A stretch of DNA of 61,619 bases, the filler included. It is 15 parts of 15 records of this genome, joined end to end, with 100 filler letters (N's around TTAATTAATTAA, not from the genome) between each part and the next. Parts side by side here need not be neighbours in the genome. Positions count along the whole stretch, not along the records: positions 51,562 to 58,490 come from SRR15195285_9648; 14 more parts are not named here. One strand, given 5' to 3'. The notes under the pieces are model-generated. The model was not told where the DNA came from. It saw nothing but the letters and a program-made list of their open reading frames with translations, and ran no database searches. The first letter of the stretch is position 1. Every line of letters begins with the position of its first letter. The position numbers and the translations under genes were made by a program. This document shows positions 45,901-58,920 of this stretch, in pieces.

Positions 45901-47424
45901 AAGCATGACTTGTTTGTGGTATTCCACGGCCGGATTAAGACATCGCAAGTCTTCATCTGTGATGCGAGTATAATTGGACCAATGCCGATACTTCTTTTTG
46001 CAGGCACTGTCGACTCCAATTATGATATTGACAAGAACAAGACATCGATGGTCGAAGAGGAGCAGACCGACGCACGTGGCTATAGCAGAAATTCTGTCAA
46101 GCAGAGCTCGATGGATGTTGACGTGGATGCTGAAGGATCCTCAAAGTCAACTCAAAAAACAGATAGTGACACAGCTCAAGTGGTTCTGGAGATAGACGGG
46201 TGGCTTCGATTTGCAACCAGCTCTCGGCAGATCCACCTCTTCACAGGGTTGCGCCGCTGTATTGGAGCCTTATTACAGTCTAAGCTAAGTGTCACTCACG
46301 ATCAGCTGGATGGTGCGACTGAGGACATGATCGTGGCAGCAGTTGCGAACATCATCCAAGAAAGCGACTGTGGTGCAGGTGCGTTCGAGAAAACGCAGCC
46401 ACTTCCTCAAGGGTGGGAGAGTGTGGAGGACCCTTCCTCCTCCACAGGCTGGGTCTTCTTCCGCAATTGTTTGAGTGGTGAAACACAGCGGGAGCGGCCG
46501 ACTCGACCTGCTTCTGCAACTAAGAAGGAGGCAGTGCCACGGTTGCCACCGCCAACAATCTCTCCACCGCTGAAGCCCACAGCGCAAACTGAGGCAGAGA
46601 AACAGGCGACGGCTGAGAAGTCGGCGCGGCTCGCCGCAGCTCGGGCCGAAGCTAAGGCGCGGCAGGCCGAGGATGCTGAGAAGGAGGCCGCGCAGGCCCG
46701 GCTTGCATCGATTCGCTTGGCCACAGAGGCGGAGCAACGCGAGCGGGAAGGCGAAGCAAAGAATGGAGTGCGTGTCCTCAGTGTGGCCGCCCTGCTGAAA
46801 AAGCTAGACCTTGAGCACTATGCAGATGAGTTTGCAGCCACTGGGATCGACGATGATGCATTGGCGGAGATGATCGCCATCATCAATGATGACCCAGAAG
46901 AGGGAGCATTAGAAGTTGGTAGACTTGTCGACGAAGTTGGAGTGCGTGGTGGCGCAGCAGTGAAGATCCGGCGTGCCCTCTCCAAGCCTGAAGAGCATGG
47001 AAAGTCTGGTGGTGGAGCAGGAGGCGGAAGTGTAAAAGGCAGAGGCAAGAAATTGTCGAAGAAGGATCAAGCTGCCCTTGCTGCCGCGGAGAAAAAGGCA
47101 CACAATGCCACGACGAAAGCAATGGAAAAAAGGCAAGCTGCTCAGAGAGCTGCGTTGCTCCAAGCAAAGAAGCAGCTTGGGAACAAAACAGGTGGGAAAG
47201 GCAAGGTTCACAAAACCTGCGCAAATATTTCAGACACTGACAATCCGCGAGTAGTTGCGCAGGCCGTGGCGCGAGCCCTGAAATTGCAGGTCGGGGAAGC
47301 GTCACTCCCGAAAGATGTACTAGTATTGGCACAACAAAAGATGCCCGAGGTTGACCTGGGGGACCTTGCTCCAAAACCGGCTCTGCTTCTTCTCGCCAAG
47401 GCCATTGTTGCGTCTGGCAAGTGA
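42941..47424 (+). CDS. DEAH/RHA RNA helicase (DHX57/DHX29/DHX36-like) with C-terminal WW and SAM-like domains; introns 43154..43223, 43704..43861, ~44543..44616, 45320..45424; 5' truncated
   Basis: GGTGCGKSTQVPQ, TQPRRIAA, DEVHER, MSAT, VFLPG, PLHS, STNIAEASITI, QRAGRAGR, LPVDPRIGK, SDH, HPSS. Confidence 0.9.
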
Positions 47425-51461: not shown

Positions 51462-51733
51462 NNNNNNNNNNNNNNNNNNNNNNNNNNNNNNNNNNNNNNN
51501 NNNNNTTAATTAATTAANNNNNNNNNNNNNNNNNNNNNNNNNNNNNNNNNNNNNNNNNNNNTGTGTGTGTGTGTGTGTGTGTGTGTGTTTTTGTCTGCCT
51601 GGCTGGCTGGCTGGCTGGCTGGCATGCAGCAAACGCAAGGTTGGGACTTCAGCTTTCCATCGTTGCGCGCTCCGCGTCTGTTGCCGCCGCTGAGCTCCTT
51701 GCTGTGGTGTCTGTGTGTAGTCGTCTCCGGCAG

Positions 51734-54700
51734 GGTTGCTTTCACCGACGAGTGCGATGGCGGTGGAGTGACTGTGCACATCGACCTGCACTACATTGAC
51801 GGCACGCTCTTCTTCACTAAGGATCACAACTGGCACGTCCATACTCGCGGTGAGCCGCCCACAGCTCGCAAGAGCAGCCTGAGGGAATGTCACTGGACGG
51901 GGGGACACTGGGACCCTGAAGAACTCGAGAGCGCGGAGTACGAGTGCGACCAGCGCGAGCCATCTGGTTGCTACCGTGGCGACATGAGTGGTAAACTTGG
52001 GACGCTATCAATCGATGGGGCTACCTTGTCGCGCGGTGGAGCCGACTCGAACGCGAACAAGTTCTCCACACCAGACCTCACGATTGCTTCCAGTGCGGCC
52101 CTTCTTGGTCGATCGATCGTGATCCACGACGCCAACTTCTCGAGCACCCCGATCGCTTGCGCAGGTATCTATCCAGACACTACCTCGTTTCCAGACCAGG
52201 ACCAGCAGCTCGTCGAGCGATTTTACGCAGCCGTGGATGTCAAAGATTTCGACGCCATGCGCCTCATCACCGCGGTGAATTATGAAGCCTTTTTTGCCCC
52301 CGGCTGCGCTGCGGTCGGCGGCGCTTTCCACGAGGGCGAAGAAACCCTGGACTTCGAGGGGCTACGAAGATTGCTTGACAGCGGAGATGCGAACGATGGC
52401 GCGGGCACGAGCCGTACCTTTATATCCGAAGGTTCTGGAGTGGTTCTCAACCACTACAGTGTTCAGAGAGGTGAGAGACGCGTACACGGTGCAGCAGTCC
52501 ACACCACCCAGAATGGACGCGTCGTTTCATCATTCTGGTACGGAGGTTCCGACACTTGCAGCGGGTTAAACAGCATGTCCAGACGCTGGGAAATGGAGAC
52601 CGGCGGAGTCGGCTCGAAAAGCGCTGCCTTCTTCTTGCTTGTGCTGGTTTTTGTCGCTATCGGCATCAGCCTCGACGGCTGGCTTCAGCAGCGCGGTGTT
52701 CTTTACCTCCCTGGTGCGTCCGTAACGATGCTGCTTGGTCTTGGATGTGGGGTGTCGCTCCGCGCGATAGGCGACGAGAAGCTGGAAGAAGTGCTGGAGT
52801 TCGACGCAGAGATCTTCGTAATCGTACTCTTGCCCTTGATCATCTTTGAAGCGGGCTACGCTCTCGACAAGGTTGGCTTCTTCAGCAACTTGCTGCCCAT
52901 CTGCACCTTCGCGATCCTCGGTACCCTGGTCTCCACTCTCCTCATCGCGCCGGCGGTCTACTTTGGCGCGGTGCGCAACTTGTTATCCGCTGCCGTTCTA
53001 CTGGGCGTGAATCGGGCGTGCTAAAGCTATTGAACTGCGCCTGATGTGCGCGCGTGTGTACTGCTCTCACAGCGCCTTTCCTTTGCATCAAATCCGGACG
53101 CTCTCAATCCAGCTTTCAGCTACACCGAGGCGCTCACCTTTGCGGCCTTGATTTCAGCGGTGGATCCAGTCTCTACGATTGCGATATTTGGCAACCTGGG
53201 CGTTGACCGCACTACCTCTGTCATTCTTTTGGGCGAGTCGATCCTCAACGATGCCGTAGCAATAGTCCTATACCATCACCTTGCCACTGCTGTAGTGGAA
53301 GAGGAGGCGCTGTCGTTTGGTGATGTACTGCTCCTACTGCTAGTAGTGCTCTGGTCGTTTGTGGCATCGTTGGTTCTCGGCGCACTGGCGGGGTTGTTCG
53401 GCACGCTCCTCGTGGGCCGAGCAACAGCAGGCACAACGCATTCGAACGCACAGCTGCAGGTGTCCCTGGTCCTCCTGTTTGCATACATTGCATACGAGCT
53501 AGCTGAGACGATGGGATTCTCCGGAATTGTCGCGACTCTTGCAGCTGGTATTGTGACCAAGCGGTACGCTTATACACACATGAGTGAAGATGGACGTGCT
53601 CTGTCCAAGCAAAGCTTCGGCATGCTCGCGCAGGTTCGTACCGCAAAGCATTTTACTGTACTGCCCCTTCTATCCTCAACCAATGAGCATATCTGTGCAC
53701 AGCATTACCGCACGATCATATCACTCGCGCAATCAGATTGTGCTCCTCACTGTTTTGGCGCGTGCTATCGGCTGTGTTGACACGCACAGCTTTTTGAGAC
53801 GGTAGTGTTTTTCTGCATTGGAGCATCGACTGCGCTATATCTGCGTCACATGCACGTAGGCTTCACGTGTGCTGTCGTCATCGGCTGCATGATTGGCAGG
53901 CTGGCCTCAGTGTGTGGTCTCTCTGTGCCCCTGAACATGCACGCCGAACGAAAGGCGCTCAGCAAGGGTGGGGTAGCGAAAGTTCTCAGCATGTCTCAGC
54001 AGATTGTGTTGTGGTGTGGTGGTTTACGGGGTGCCGTTGCGTTTGCCTTGGTGCTCTCTTTCCCGTCATCGTGGCGACCCACTCTCATTGGCACAGTGGC
54101 GTGGATTGTCTTTGCGACCACTCTGATCGGCGGAGCAGGGACTCCGTCACTACTCGACTATCTTGGTATGGCGCACTATGGTGGTGGAGCTGACGATGGG
54201 GAAGCTGCGCACACCCACCTGGAAGCATCGTTCGGTGATGGTAGACTGGAGGCACTCGGCAACGCCGATGCGGCGAATGCTGCGGCGGAGCTGCCACATG
54301 ATGGTGGCACTTTCACCGAGGCGTTCAGAATGCTGGAATTGAAGCTGCTGGCGACTGGCAGCACTGAGGCTGCGCGGGCAGCTGCAAGGCTAGCCGCGAA
54401 TGGGCCCCAGTCACAAAGTACTACCGCAAGGGAAATGCGGACTTCTCCCGGTGTGGCTCAGCCGCAACGCGATCCAGCGACTGGTGCGCCGGACGATGAT
54501 GGAAACCTGGATCGAAACTGGTCGACAATGGCTAATGTCGATGGTTTTACTGATGTCGCTATCGATCAAACGGAAACTCGGACGGCTGAAGCGCCCGGAC
54601 CGAGAGATCATGGGTTTTCATCTCCACAACGTAGTCGTGTTGGTTCGCCGCCACGGTCAACGCTCGATGCTGCGCGGGAGGCGAACCAGTCTCGCGTGCG

Positions 54701-54821
54701 CAGCGGGTCTGACTCAGGTTCCAGTAGGCCTGGGTACGACCCTGCCGCCCTCGCGCACACAGCTTCGGCTGCCCAGCGACAGGAAGCGTACAATGATGTT
54801 GCGGATGGGGTGCGTCCATGA
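51734..54821 (+). CDS. Fusion protein: Cu-only SOD-like domain + SnoaL/NTF2-like domain + CPA1 Na+/H+ exchanger (NHE8/NHX-like); introns 52971..53072 and 53634..53789; 5' exon(s) missing
   Basis: NWHVH, CHWTGGHWDP, CYRGDMSGKLG, GRSIVIH, IACAGI; LVERFYAAVDVKDFDAM; LLPLIIFEAGY, FFSNL, ISAVDPV, GESILNDAVAIV, SGIVA, GGLRGAVAFAL. Confidence 0.85.
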
Positions 54822-55450: not shown

Positions 55451-58228
55451 CTACGGGCCGGTAGACCTCTTCTCGCGGGCTTTCTCCAAGAACGCCAACT
55501 TTTGGTCCTTTTTGGCCATTTGTCGAGAAAGCAACTGTAATTGCTCCTGTAGCTCCACCTGCTTCGATTTTGCGAAGTTTAGGGTAACCGTGCGATGCTT
55601 CTTCTCAAGTACATACTTGGTGACGTAGACAACCACGAGGGCATACGCGACAACGGGGCTCGTCACTGAGTTCACAATCGACAAAGCTATGCCAGAACTA
55701 GGCAAGATCACAGACACCGGCTTCTGCAGTGGAGTGGGATCATTGAAAGGCCCTCCCTGTACCGCAGTAGTGCACTGTCCGCCAGTAACGCAAGTGGACT
55801 TGGACAGAAAGAAATACAGATTCAGCAACGCGATGGCCAGCGAGAGCACGAAGAAGTTGGCGATGAATGCCATCGCCTGTCTGGTTTCGAAGGTGCGCAG
55901 CGGCTTTTTCATGTACCGACAGAGCACCCAGTAGTCCCACTTGAAATTCAGGTACCACATGAACGGCATCCTGTGATTGGCGGCGCAAACAAACAGCCGA
56001 AATGAATACTTCACAACAGGTAGCGCTGCGCTACACGGCTCCTTCCACAGGGTCATTGGGCGGCAAACGTACCACAGCAGAATAATGGGCACATAGGGAA
56101 CCGCAAGCCAAGCAAGAGCTTGGGTATAAAGCAGCTGGATCACCATCGTCGAAGTCTGAAAGTCCGACTTCGCAGCCGACGCCGGCTGCTTCTTCGCGTG
56201 CACATACGCTCTTTTGGCCTCACCGATCGCCACAGCTACTGCTTTGCCGACGAAAAAGTCCAGTGCAATGGTTTTGAACAGGACAAATCCGAGCTCGTCT
56301 TCCTGCATTGGTGCATATGACGTCATAACTTGTCAGTCGCTGGAACGTCAAAGCGTACTGAGCAGCAAATCGCATAGTATTGATACTGCGATCCAAAGTG
56401 GTGCAAATGCAACAGCAGGCTGTACTCACTGGGCACGGCCAATCCGACGACGCATCTGACGCCTTCGTAGCGTAGGTTGCATCCGCATTCACCCCATACG
56501 CGCATGCATCGCCTGATTGCGCAGCCTCCCAGAAAGCGCTAACCCCTGGCAGCTCCAATTGGGAGCCACCAACGTAGGAGTTGGCTCCAGTATACATGAG
56601 CACCAGGGCGTTCAGAATCTTGCCGAAGTACAGACGTGACGTTTCCATCTGGAACTGAGTTGACGGTGCGTCGTATTTCTCGAACTGTATCAGCAAATTC
56701 GTTATTGCTGGGAGCACTGCATGTGCGGAATGGATTGGCCAAGTCAGATAAGCACACACGTCCGTTGGTCACATACTAGTATAGGCGACGGGAGTTGCGT
56801 ACCACCATTAATGACAATCAGCGCGAGATTCGTCATTGGCAGCGCCGCATGGATTTTCCCAAAGAATTCTTCAGGGTTCGAGAAGAACGATTCTCTGCCT
56901 GGTGCGGACAAGTACGTCAACGAGCCGATAGTGAACCAGGACGCCAATATGAGCAAGACGTTGATAAAGATGCCGAAGACCTTCTTGGCAAGCAGCCGAT
57001 TCTTCTCTTGCTGTGAGCGGTTTGCAATCTTCTCCAACACCTCGTGCTCTTTCAGGGCCATGTTCATGTTCTCGGATGCCTGAATCATTGCGTCTTCGAT
57101 CGACGATTTGTCGTACATTTTGAAATCCCAGCCAGCGAATGCCAGCTTCGAGAACTTGTTTGACTCCTCGTCTGCTACCACGTCCTCCTTTTTTTCCTCT
57201 GCCTTCTCTTCGGAGTACTTCTTCACAGCCATGCCGACAAGGAAGAAGCCGAGCGCGCTGAGGACCACTGAGTAAATAAGGGCGCCTGATGCCGGGAACA
57301 ATGAAAACAAAAGAAAACGCGGGAACTGCCCAGAACCAGCAGGGAGCATCACCAGGCCACTCGAGTCGGAGATCAGCACGAATTGGTATATCACCACAGT
57401 GCCACCGACGACGAACGAGAGCACGTTTAACATCCACAGGTAACGCAAGAATGCGAAGTACACTGCTATGCCTTGTCCAAAGCGTGCCTCCACGAAGCGG
57501 TATTCTTTGTGGCCCATCTTCTCCTGCACACGATGGACGGTGGCTTTGTACCATGTGACCAGACGCTTGTGCCACGGGTCACGCGCTCGCTGAGACTTCG
57601 TGCCACTCTTCTTCTCTTCCTCCAGCTCATCCAACAGGTAGCCCTCGGCACCCTCCAGGGCCCGCTGCAGCTCTTCTTGTTTCTTTGCGCTATTTGGGTC
57701 CTTGCCTTTGGTCGCAGCTAGCCGGGCATTGGCTTCCACGAGCTTTTTCAGCTGCTCGGCCTTGATTTCGTCGGCCTCTTTCTTCATCGCCCGGTTCTCT
57801 GACTCTAGCTGCTCGTTCTTTCGCTTCACTCCTTTAAGCTGAATCTCCATTTTCTTACGCTCAATGGTGAGGTGCTTGACCTCGTCCTTCGCCGCCTTCG
57901 CCTGCTGCAGGAGATGCTGAACGGCATCGTACTCCTCGTTCGTTACCTCCTGCGGCGCGGTGAACACGGCCGGTTGGTCCGCGTCCACGGTTGCCTGGCG
58001 CTGTGACCTCTGACCCAGGTCTTCGTCGCTGTCATAGTCCGCGCCTGGTGACTTGACGCCGCCTCGCCGCCGCTGATCCTTGCTCGGCGCGGCTTCCAGA
58101 TCCTCGTCATAGTTGTAACCGAAGCCGACTGCGCTCTGCGCCTCGTCGCTCGGGTCGATACTGTCCCAGTCCACGACCTCCACGGATCGCAGCTCGTCGA
58201 CCAGCCGCGCTGCTGGCACAGGCTGCAT
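55451..58228 (-). CDS. Transmembrane channel-like (TMC family) protein; introns include 56717..56802 and 55971..56072
   Basis: VEARFGQGIAVYFAFLRYLWMLN, FAGWDF, LIQFEKY, LLYTQALAW...VP, GPF, and an N-terminal coiled coil. Confidence 0.8.
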
Positions 58229-58920
58229 CAGCAGCCCGTCACCGGCGCGTGCGCCGTGGCAAGGCGGCGACCACTACCCTGCTCCTGCATCTGCAGTTCG
58301 CCTGGCTCCTCATTCTCGCCGCCGTCACAGCACAGCCGGTTCCACGCCATTTCTCATCCTCGCAGGCAAGCGCTGCGGTTTGTCGTTAGCAGCTATCGCC
58401 GCCTCAGCAGCAGCCTGCCATACTCGCACCAAGTTCCTCAAAGTCGCGCCGCCCAGTGTCCAGCAGCAGCAGCAGCAGCAGGAGCAGCAGNNNNNNNNNN
58501 NNNNNNNNNNNNNNNNNNNNNNNNNNNNNNNNNNTTAATTAATTAANNNNNNNNNNNNNNNNNNNNNNNNNNNNNNNNNNNNNNNNNNNNGTATTTGAAT
58601 GTTAGAAGTAGTGGTTGGTCTGCTATGTGGCCTCCGCGCGCGCCGTTACGCGCGCTACAGAGGGTCACAGGGCCGCCGCTAGCTAGATAGCGCCATGGAG
58701 GGGTGCCTAGCGCAACCCTAGCACCTCCTTTTTTGTGTGTGTACACGTGTCACTCCCCTTTAAATGCACTTCGGCGCTTGTTTATTCAGATTACGGTGTA
58801 CACTGTCTGAGTACTAGTACCTCAGCCGTCAGCGTACCATGCATAGCGCGCGCGGTGCGTGCGTGCGCCGCGCTCGCTCGCTCGCTACGCTCCCGACGCG
58901 GACGCCGATCAGACAGCGCT

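Follow-up and report, generated by a model that had tools for sequence, protein, structure and literature searches.

The window analyzed here, a stretch of DNA of 61,619 nucleotides (nt), contains a gene on the + strand whose product joins a Cu-only superoxide dismutase (SOD)-like β-barrel, an NTF2/SnoaL-like domain and a Na+/H+ exchanger (NHE) in one polypeptide. It is a single conserved gene of an uncultured marine protist, and an assembly chimera is very unlikely. The parts belong to known families, and the architecture and the host lineage are new.

Structure and authenticity of the fusion gene

The window is a chain of approximately 15 short contigs (3–7 kb) joined by N44-TTAATTAATTAA-N44 linkers, with 28 runs of N across 3254–58590. 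Gene order across the linkers is therefore uninformative. The whole fusion gene lies inside one linker-free contig (51562–58490), with its start 62 nt past the linker. A stop-free frame runs from 51510 to 53024 on the + strand with an ATG within it at 51624, and neither a stop codon nor an N occurs in 51562–53021. The open frame 51624–52970 encodes a putative signal peptide, the Cu-only-SOD-like barrel, the NTF2/SnoaL-like domain and transmembrane segments (TM) 1–4 of the exchanger. Its 449-aa product (P0003) was matched to three Pfam families.

The gene model consists of three exons (51624–52970, 53073–53633 and 53790–54821) and encodes 979 aa with a single terminal stop; both introns are of the GT..AG type. 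A preliminary description of this locus had placed the gene at 51734–54821. The end of that interval coincides with the stop codon at 54821, while the start has to be moved upstream to the ATG at 51624. Its statement that the SOD-like domain, the NTF2/SnoaL-like domain and the first exchanger TMs share one exon was borne out by the single frame, the Pfam matches and the NTF2 fold recognized by structure.

The exon junctions were checked against relatives. Across the exon 1/2 junction, VYFAAVVSFAS of the intron-less relative P0185 is colinear with VYFGA-RLSFAS of the fusion gene (the hyphen marks the junction). An in-frame alternative donor at 53007, which would add 12 residues, was dropped since P0185 is colinear with the 52970 junction. 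At intron 2, exon 2 ends near residue 419 of NHE6 and exon 3 starts near residue 421.

The same three-domain order was found in other sequences. Among 1.84 billion representative proteins, a single one whose match took in residues 33–449, and thereby the three parts, was found: P0005 (81% identical). A check for proteins with both SOD_Cu and Na_H_Exchanger, which the preliminary description had suggested, yielded five further clusters at 90% identity with precomputed PF00999 and PF00080 matches on one protein, 74–91% identical to the fusion protein. These were P0182 (91%, NCBI), P0183 (91%, Logan), P0005 (ENA, 6 members), P0184 (77%, Logan) and P0185 (74%, 729 aa, ENA, 11 members). In P0185, intron 1 is missing, and one continuous frame covers everything between the signal peptide and the end of the exon 2 region, with both the SOD-like and the NTF2-like domain included.

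Of the 23 public runs listed, 19 contained near-identical exon 1 DNA; these came from 17 studies of seawater metagenomes. At least half of the exon 1 words occurred in 11 of these 19 runs, with six RNA libraries. The RNA-library contig X14 (52123–52314) spans the SOD/NTF2 boundary, and contig X8 (52554–52719) spans the NTF2/TM1 boundary. Run contigs thus bridge both domain junctions, whereas a spliced joint was not captured. These data suggest that the fusion gene is transcribed and spliced. At 52175, a synonymous A>G change in the third position of Pro184 was present in RNA libraries X8 and X14 and absent in DNA run X1, and is most simply a strain difference. Among JGI metagenome contigs, a first scan for orthologous DNA gave no match, and a second gave two loci with the exchanger part only.

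Some of these data count against a genuine, expressed fusion. No spliced joint was found among the run contigs aligned to the gene, and none from RNA libraries covered intron 2; the RNA-library contig X16 extends 29 nt into intron 1, and RNA-library contigs may contain DNA. Together with the origin of the window from linked short contigs and the closeness of the gene start to a contig end, they are what can be said for an artefact, in which two unrelated genes had been united by an incorrect gene model or by chimeric assembly of single-cell or metagenome data. That explanation is extremely improbable and already close to refuted, given the absence of stops and N from the start of the contig to beyond exon 1, the identical domain order in five more clusters from three data sources, and the contigs that bridge the junctions in other runs.

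In the signal-peptide region, a 37-nt piece (51681–51717) was also present in other X8 and X1 contigs with unrelated flanks on both sides; it is either a short repeat or a piece common to this gene and a paralogue.

Domains of the fusion protein

The SOD-like domain was recognized by Pfam Sod_Cu on residues 34–171 of P0003 (33.5 bits, cut-off 28.9, E 6.7e-8). When a model of the SOD-like and NTF2-like domains was compared by VIA with 48,161 chains, Candida albicans SOD5 was the sole SOD in the top 50 (4n3t_A; Z 12.1, rmsd 3.4, 136 of 153 residues aligned, 26% identity). The pLDDT of the barrel part of this model was middling. A phmmer search of the SOD domain against PDB sequences gave weak Cu/Zn SOD matches only (best E 0.018) and did not find SOD5. 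When residues 1–340 were compared with longer proteins, the single match was a frog CSRP-like protein, P0004.

Conservation was assessed with a column census of 303 related domains, excised from the matches and aligned, and with an alignment of seven orthologous forms (the fusion protein, P0182, P0183, P0005, P0184, P0185 and P0186). In the census, the four predicted Cu ligands are His in 257 (column 71), 270 (column 73), 252 (column 95) and 259 (column 168) domains, and the fusion protein has His at each. Cys is found in 298 domains at column 89, 254 at column 108, 260 at column 116 and 299 at column 179, and Asp in 298 at column 120; the fusion protein agrees at all five. H71, H73, H95, H168, C89, C179, C108, C116 and RGDMSGK are invariant in all seven forms, at domain identities down to 53%. 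The motif string of the preliminary description was recovered (WHVH, C..TGGHWDP, C..GDMSGKLG, GRSIVIH and IACA).

There is no His from H95 to D120, the span where Zn ligands would lie, and Zn ligands are therefore absent. The loop from H168 to C179 has 10 residues, which by comparison with the length of loop VII in SOD1 means that the long loop VII is absent. The barrel fold, four predicted Cu His, the disulfide Cys and the missing Zn site with a short loop VII were thus all found, and by sequence the domain has the Cu-only pattern as defined in passages of PMC13017621. In comparison with P0005, the identity was 73% for the SOD part, 81% for the NTF2 part and 91% for the TM part. These per-part values indicate that the SOD part is constrained rather than decaying. 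The metal site appears to be under constraint, and catalytic efficiency may not be. In this text, "SOD" denotes the fold and a putative metal site, with activity as a presumption.

The middle domain has a cone-shaped α+β NTF2 fold, according to structural models. Pfam SnoaL_2 matched residues 197–302 weakly (E 0.05, 14.7 bits, under the cut-off of 27). The AF2 model of residues 188–338 had a pLDDT of 80.6 and a pTM of 0.77, and Foldseek against PDB returned NTF2-like, SnoaL-like and ketosteroid-isomerase folds (best E 3.9e-6; TM-scores 0.42–0.69 among the listed rows). With the two-domain model, NTF2-like entries made up 49 of the top 50 VIA rows (Z 11.5–14.5). SnoaL-like clusters in the ESM Atlas scored 0.81; since shuffled proteins can score as high, this is a lead only. 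Only four short relatives of the NTF2-like domain, none with a Pfam family, came out of 5.8 billion proteins in a profile search, and the relative P0186 has a precomputed SnoaL_2 (PF12680) match.

The motifs PGC, FHEGEE, NHY, HGAAVH and FWYGG are conserved in this domain, with a second Cys (C312) after FWYGG. H293 and R264 are among its invariant polar residues, and such polar His and Arg would suit a ligand-binding or catalytic pocket. A homodimer prediction for the NTF2-like domain scored 0.12 against a mark of 0.32, which is evidence neither way. The two-domain model had a pTM of 0.47 and supports no defined contact between the domains.

The exchanger part is of the NHE6/9-like CPA1 type and looks intact by sequence. 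Pfam Na_H_Exchanger matched residues 360–447 (32 bits, cut-off 26.2) and exon 2 (E 3.3e-26); exon 3 alone had no Pfam match. Residues 378–446 align with NHE6 163–231, and residues 386–446 with NHE9. Exon 2 aligned with NHE6 246–417 (E 7.8e-20) and exon 3 with NHE6 423–539 (E 1.3e-5). The three exons are thus colinear with human NHE6 163–539, and the CPA1 exchanger domain is complete. The motifs SAVDP, GESILND and GGLRGA stand at the positions of SATDP, GESVLND and AGLRGA in NHE6, and they include the residues that we take to bind the ion. The ES.LND motif named in the preliminary description is kept as GESILND in exon 2.

Hydropathy revealed an N-terminal hydrophobic segment (residues 23–41) and approximately 13 membrane segments in residues 334–757. 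The N-termini of the orthologues differ in sequence and equal the fusion protein in hydrophobicity. According to passages of PMC7737618, NHE9 has 13 TMs, an extracellular N-terminus, an intracellular C-terminus and TM1 at the dimer interface, and long N-terminal tails accompany signal peptides. By homology, the SOD-like and NTF2-like ectodomain would face the outside or a lumen, and the C-terminal tail would be cytosolic. An exofacial position agrees with the rule, given in part of PMC13017621, that the place of Cu-only SODs and CSRPs is always outside the cell, where they also obtain their Cu. By analogy with NHE6 and NHE9, the nearest solved relatives, the exchanger may be endosomal and may exchange cations for H+. 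The coordinates of all parts are listed in Table 1.

Table 1. Parts of the fusion gene and their coordinates in the window
Feature	Position	Strand	Basis or remark
Start codon and signal-peptide-like segment, residues 1–35	51624..51728	+	ATG; hydropathy peak at residues 23–41
Cu-only-SOD-like β-barrel, residues 34–187	51723..52184	+	Pfam Sod_Cu, 303-domain census, orthologue alignment, SOD5 structure match
Predicted Cu His codons	H71 51834–36, H73 51840–42, H95 51906–08, H168 52125–27	+	
Cys pairs of the SOD-like domain	C89/C179 and C108/C116	+	
Y117 at the SOD5 E110 position	51972–74	+	D120 retained
P176 at the active-site Arg position	52149–51	+	
NTF2/SnoaL-like domain, residues 188–312	52185..52559	+	AF2, Foldseek, VIA, alignments; SnoaL_2 only E 0.05
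Juxtamembrane linker, residues 313–340	52560..52643	+	Low pLDDT; 7-residue deletion in P0182 and P0183
Exchanger TM1–TM4, residues 341–449, within exon 1	52644..52970	+	Pfam Na_H_Exchanger, NHE6/NHE9 alignment, hydropathy
Intron 1, GT..AG, 102 nt	52971..53072	+	Colinearity with intron-less P0185
Exon 2, middle exchanger helices, SAVDP and GESILND ion-site motif (53235–53252)	53073..53633	+	Pfam, NHE6
Intron 2, GT..AG, 156 nt	53634..53789	+	Frame colinear with NHE6
Exon 3, first part, last exchanger helices, GGLRGA (54018–54035)	53790..54179	+	NHE6, hydropathy
Ala/Asp/Gly/Arg/Ser-rich C-terminal tail and TGA stop	54180..54821	+	Composition of the last 209 residues; no Pfam match

On the same contig, a TMC-like neighbor gene lies at 55451–58273 on the – strand (Pfam TMC E 6.3e-5, just under the cut-off). 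Another contig carries, at 45358–47421 on the + strand, an open reading frame (ORF) in which a WW domain and then a long tail rich in Ala, Lys and Glu come after a helicase-associated OB_NTP_bind domain.

Relatives and host lineage

The host organism is probably a picozoan, as judged from the Picozoa labels on close relatives. One of them, the fragment P0156, carries the label Picomonas judraskeda; it belongs to the P0005 cluster at 90% identity and is 70% identical to the fusion protein over 92 residues. P0008, P0037 and P0026 come from Picozoa sp. records.

Three relatives (P0006, P0008 and P0014; 34–50% identity) consist of a signal peptide, an NTF2-like domain and NHE without SOD. A quick maximum-likelihood tree was calculated for the TM1–4 region from 51 rows and 115 columns, after 12 near-duplicates had been dropped. 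One clade (SH-aLRT 98) united the SOD+NTF2 forms (5 rows), the NTF2 forms (3 rows), P0037 and the fragment P0052, and within it the SOD+NTF2 forms made up one subclade (SH-aLRT 98). This topology, with a midpoint root that serves for drawing only, fits the idea that the NTF2-like domain was the older partner of the exchanger and that the SOD-like domain was added once.

Among the exchanger relatives with long N-termini, 8 of the 10 examined (P0087, P0092, P0097, P0114, P0133, P0140, P0151 and P0089) had an ANF_receptor domain, a Venus-flytrap ligand-binding domain, before Na_H_Exchanger. Two of the ANF_receptor–NHE clusters include picozoan records. In the metagenome locus L001 (2–2700, + strand), the start of a related exchanger overlaps an upstream ORF in another frame, whose product is EGF-like and rich in Cys. 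An intron or a frame error may divide what would be a single gene. Considering the relatives with ANF_receptor, NTF2-like and EGF-like parts, the exofacial N-terminus of the exchanger is therefore a slot for interchangeable folded modules.

The SOD-like domain was also seen in other contexts. P0186 (343 aa, 10 member sequences) has a SOD-like domain and SnoaL_2, keeps the active-site Arg and lacks an exchanger part. Either it is secreted as a two-domain protein, or its gene model was truncated at an intron. Proteins with 2–10 Cu-only-SOD-like units in tandem, of a 'CY.GD' variant of the E110/D113 signature, were also observed (P0026, P0007, P0015, P0022, P0028, P0046 and others); P0026 comes from a picozoan single-cell record, and many come from marine metagenomes. 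By sequence they are apparently CSRP-like proteins outside Opisthokonta.

Function and comparison with known systems

Our tentative preference, held with somewhat less than even confidence, is that the protein is a membrane-tethered exofacial copper enzyme, with the exchanger as an anchor that shares its compartment. A cleavable signal peptide would take the SOD-like barrel and the NTF2-like pocket domain across the membrane, followed by a 13-TM electroneutral cation/H+ exchanger of the NHE6/9 type and a disordered cytosolic tail. The ectodomain would face sea water or the lumen of an endocytic or food-vacuole system and would be suspended from TM1, a dimer-interface segment in NHE9. The barrel would bind Cu through its four invariant His and dismutate superoxide; we infer both the binding and the activity. 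Dismutation would probably be slower than that of SOD5 because the guiding Arg is Pro. The exchanger would serve as the anchor, as GPI (glycosylphosphatidylinositol) anchors do for fungal Cu-only SODs, and would independently set the pH and Na+ of the compartment. The two halves would thus be linked by co-localization in one compartment and not by stoichiometric chemical coupling. As described in part of PMC3608682, Picomonas uses bulk-flow endocytosis to bring colloids of less than 150 nm into a food vacuole of very large size, and by analogy a vacuole or plasma-membrane location is plausible.

Several findings weigh against a tethered copper enzyme. Passages of PMC13017621 define an E110/D113 signature pair for Cu-only SODs and state that many but not all CSRP domains keep it. 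The pair is incomplete in the fusion protein: D120 is kept, and the E110 column (117) has Tyr in the fusion protein and Phe in P0182 and P0183; among the 303 domains, 217 have Glu there and 34 have Tyr. Since Tyr or Phe occurs at this column, a hydrogen bond from E110 to the bridging His cannot be general. The Tyr variant is concentrated in the closest relatives of the SOD-like domain and also occurs in the tandem-repeat protein P0026. The active-site Arg, three residues before the second disulfide Cys (column 176: Arg in 248 and Pro in 12 of 303), is Pro in the fusion protein, P0182, P0183, P0005 and P0184, that is, in five of the seven forms; this Arg is listed as a key domain feature in the available part of an oyster CSRP paper (PMC12217663). 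The deeper relatives P0185 and P0186 retain it, so its loss took place inside the clade and is younger than the fusion. At column 149, Asp in 285 of 303 domains, the fusion protein has Thr. Furthermore, this explanation leaves the NTF2-like domain, the presumed older partner of the exchanger, without a role, the relatives with ANF_receptor ectodomains hint at sensing over catalysis, and the missing spliced joint and possible DNA in the RNA libraries bear on it as well. The match to Cu-only SODs claimed in the preliminary description thus holds for the Cu His, the missing Zn His and long loop VII and the SOD5 structure, and fails at the E110 and Arg positions. With Tyr and Pro at these two positions, the domain is, by sequence, not a textbook Cu-only SOD.

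A sensor-exchanger is possible, if on balance doubtful. The ectodomain would then act as a receptor or regulator, and the exchanger would be gated or tuned by a cue from outside or from the lumen. The NTF2-like pocket might receive such a cue as a small ligand, or the open Cu site might receive it as Cu, superoxide or peroxide; the SOD-like barrel would be mainly a Cu or redox sensor and not a detoxifying enzyme. This would account for the ANF_receptor domains at the same exofacial position in most of the long-N-terminus relatives, some of them picozoan, for the Cys-rich EGF-like ectodomain of L001 and for the SOD-less NTF2-like exchangers in one well-supported clade with the SOD forms. The invariant H293, R264 and FWYGG of the NTF2-like domain are typical of a pocket, and loss of the Arg with the metal ligands kept fits relaxed selection on turnover. 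TM1, to which the ectodomain is attached, lies at the dimer interface of NHE9 in the sections of PMC7737618 on its structure. The coupling itself is less well accounted for: no defined contact was predicted in the two-domain model, and the 28-residue linker to TM1 is of low confidence and carries a deletion in two orthologues, which speaks against rigid coupling. A literature search gave no ectodomain-gated exchanger, and we know of no exchanger that is gated by an ectodomain.

Non-catalytic copper handling is unlikely. Here the barrel would be a low-affinity module that captures or buffers Cu, with sea water or endocytosed colloids as the source and uptake or protection as the purpose, and would have no meaningful dismutase turnover. 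The combination of invariant Cu ligands with a changed second sphere, in which residues behind the speed and pH-independence of SOD5 are replaced (E110 by Tyr or Phe, Arg by Pro), would suit such a module, and passages of PMC13017621 describe the re-use of the SOD fold for copper delivery in CCS. However, a Pfam scan of the protein found no Cu transporter or other Cu motif, and the Arg of P0185 and P0186 indicates that the ancestral fused form had this residue together with the metal ligands. Moreover, substitutions of Arg143 in SOD1 lower activity and do not abolish it.

Stoichiometric coupling, in which the exchanger supplies or removes the protons of 2 O2- + 2 H+ -> H2O2 + O2, is very unlikely, and tethering or sensing is better supported. 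The preliminary description had proposed such a link between reactive oxygen species and pH control. Both predicted activities would lie on one polypeptide and one membrane face, and, going by part of PMC13017621, catalysis or Cu retention could depend on pH where the E110 carboxylate is missing. On the other hand, no link between the two sites is evident in the sequence, the SOD is a late addition, made once, to an NTF2–NHE protein, the same exchanger clade accepts unrelated ectodomains, and the catalytic Arg was lost in the subclade of the fusion protein. Buffered sea water or vacuole fluid also supplies protons far faster than a superoxide flux uses them.

A broader idea, which we consider improbable, is an unrecognized class of marine-protist "receptor-exchangers", where control runs between an exofacial module and the Na+/H+ exchanger in one direction or the other. 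So far the modules would comprise an ANF_receptor flytrap, an NTF2-like pocket, and the combination of a SOD-like Cu site with an NTF2-like pocket. If this were true, the exchanger in a fresh food vacuole filled with sea water would use the large outward Na+ gradient and drive H+ into the lumen. The Cu site, without the E110 carboxylate that gives SOD5 its pH-independence, could then be switched on, loaded or unloaded by the local pH; alternatively, the exchanger would be gated by the Cu or redox state of the tethered site. In both cases, oxidant chemistry and the maturation of the vacuole would be linked.

The literature searches agreed with the earlier statement that no example had been described. 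Full-text searches for Sod_Cu with Na_H_Exchanger and for ANF_receptor with Na_H_Exchanger returned no publication. Judged from their listings, a search for Picozoa with superoxide dismutase had none on the fusion protein, and one for copper-only SOD with transmembrane and oomycete had none relevant. The word "transmembrane" was absent from the 2026 review PMC13017621; its supplementary organism lists, like those of the oyster CSRP paper, may include non-opisthokont members.

The fusion protein places a Cu-only-SOD-type domain in a lineage, probably Picozoa, beyond the fungi, oomycetes, animals and Capsaspora given in passages of PMC13017621, and related tandem-repeat SOD-like proteins occur in the same, probably picozoan, lineage. 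It is the first case found of a SOD-fold domain anchored by an ion transporter rather than a GPI anchor. The NHE6/9-like exofacial N-terminus in marine protists would be a slot for folded ligand- or metal-binding modules, which makes regulation of NHE from the outside or the lumen testable. Furthermore, the natural Arg-to-Pro and Glu-to-Tyr/Phe variants, set against Arg-keeping relatives, form a series that probes the second sphere of Cu-only SODs.

Among known systems, NHE6 and NHE9 (SLC9A6/9) are the best solved relatives of all three exons and share SAxDP, ESxLNDA, GLRGA and approximately 13 TMs. Before TM1, NHE9 has 23 residues according to part of PMC7737618, whereas the fusion protein has approximately 340 in two folded domains, and its C-terminal tail is unrelated to that of NHE6/NHE9. 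With the NTF2-like superfamily (SnoaL-like cyclases, ketosteroid isomerase and limonene epoxide hydrolase), the middle domain shares the cone-shaped α+β fold. It differs in its low identity (7–21%), its own motifs (PGC, HEGEE, NHY, HGAAVH and FWYGG) and its two conserved Cys, and in being eukaryotic and, by homology, exofacial. The ANF_receptor–NHE and NTF2-like–NHE proteins of marine protists have the exchanger family and the ectodomain position in common with the fusion protein. None of them has the SOD-like domain, and SOD+NTF2+NHE is limited to one clade with 98% support.

CSRP domains are the closest sequence relatives of the SOD-like domain and share CxGDxSGK. The Capsaspora proteins P0009/P0161 matched with E 5e-64 over 10 stretches, and the frog CSRP-like P0004 matched too. 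In passages of PMC13017621, CSRPs have 4–12 tandem repeats and are secreted or GPI-anchored; the fusion protein has one SOD-like domain, followed by the NTF2-like domain and a 13-TM exchanger. The nearest relatives of its SOD-like domain are of the 'CY.GD' variant, which also forms tandem repeats in the picozoan P0026.

Open-site Cu-only SODs are placed in fungi and oomycetes only, and CSRPs in animals and Capsaspora, in the same parts of PMC13017621. With the fungal and oomycete Cu-only SODs (SOD5, 4n3t), the fusion protein shares the barrel, the four Cu His, the disulfide pair, the absence of Zn His, the short loop VII, the D113 equivalent and, by prediction, a signal-led exofacial placement. 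In contrast to SOD5, it has Tyr at E110, Pro at the active-site Arg (in its subclade) and the extra Cys pair C108/C116. Its anchor is a 13-TM transporter, whereas that of fungal Cu-only SODs is GPI.

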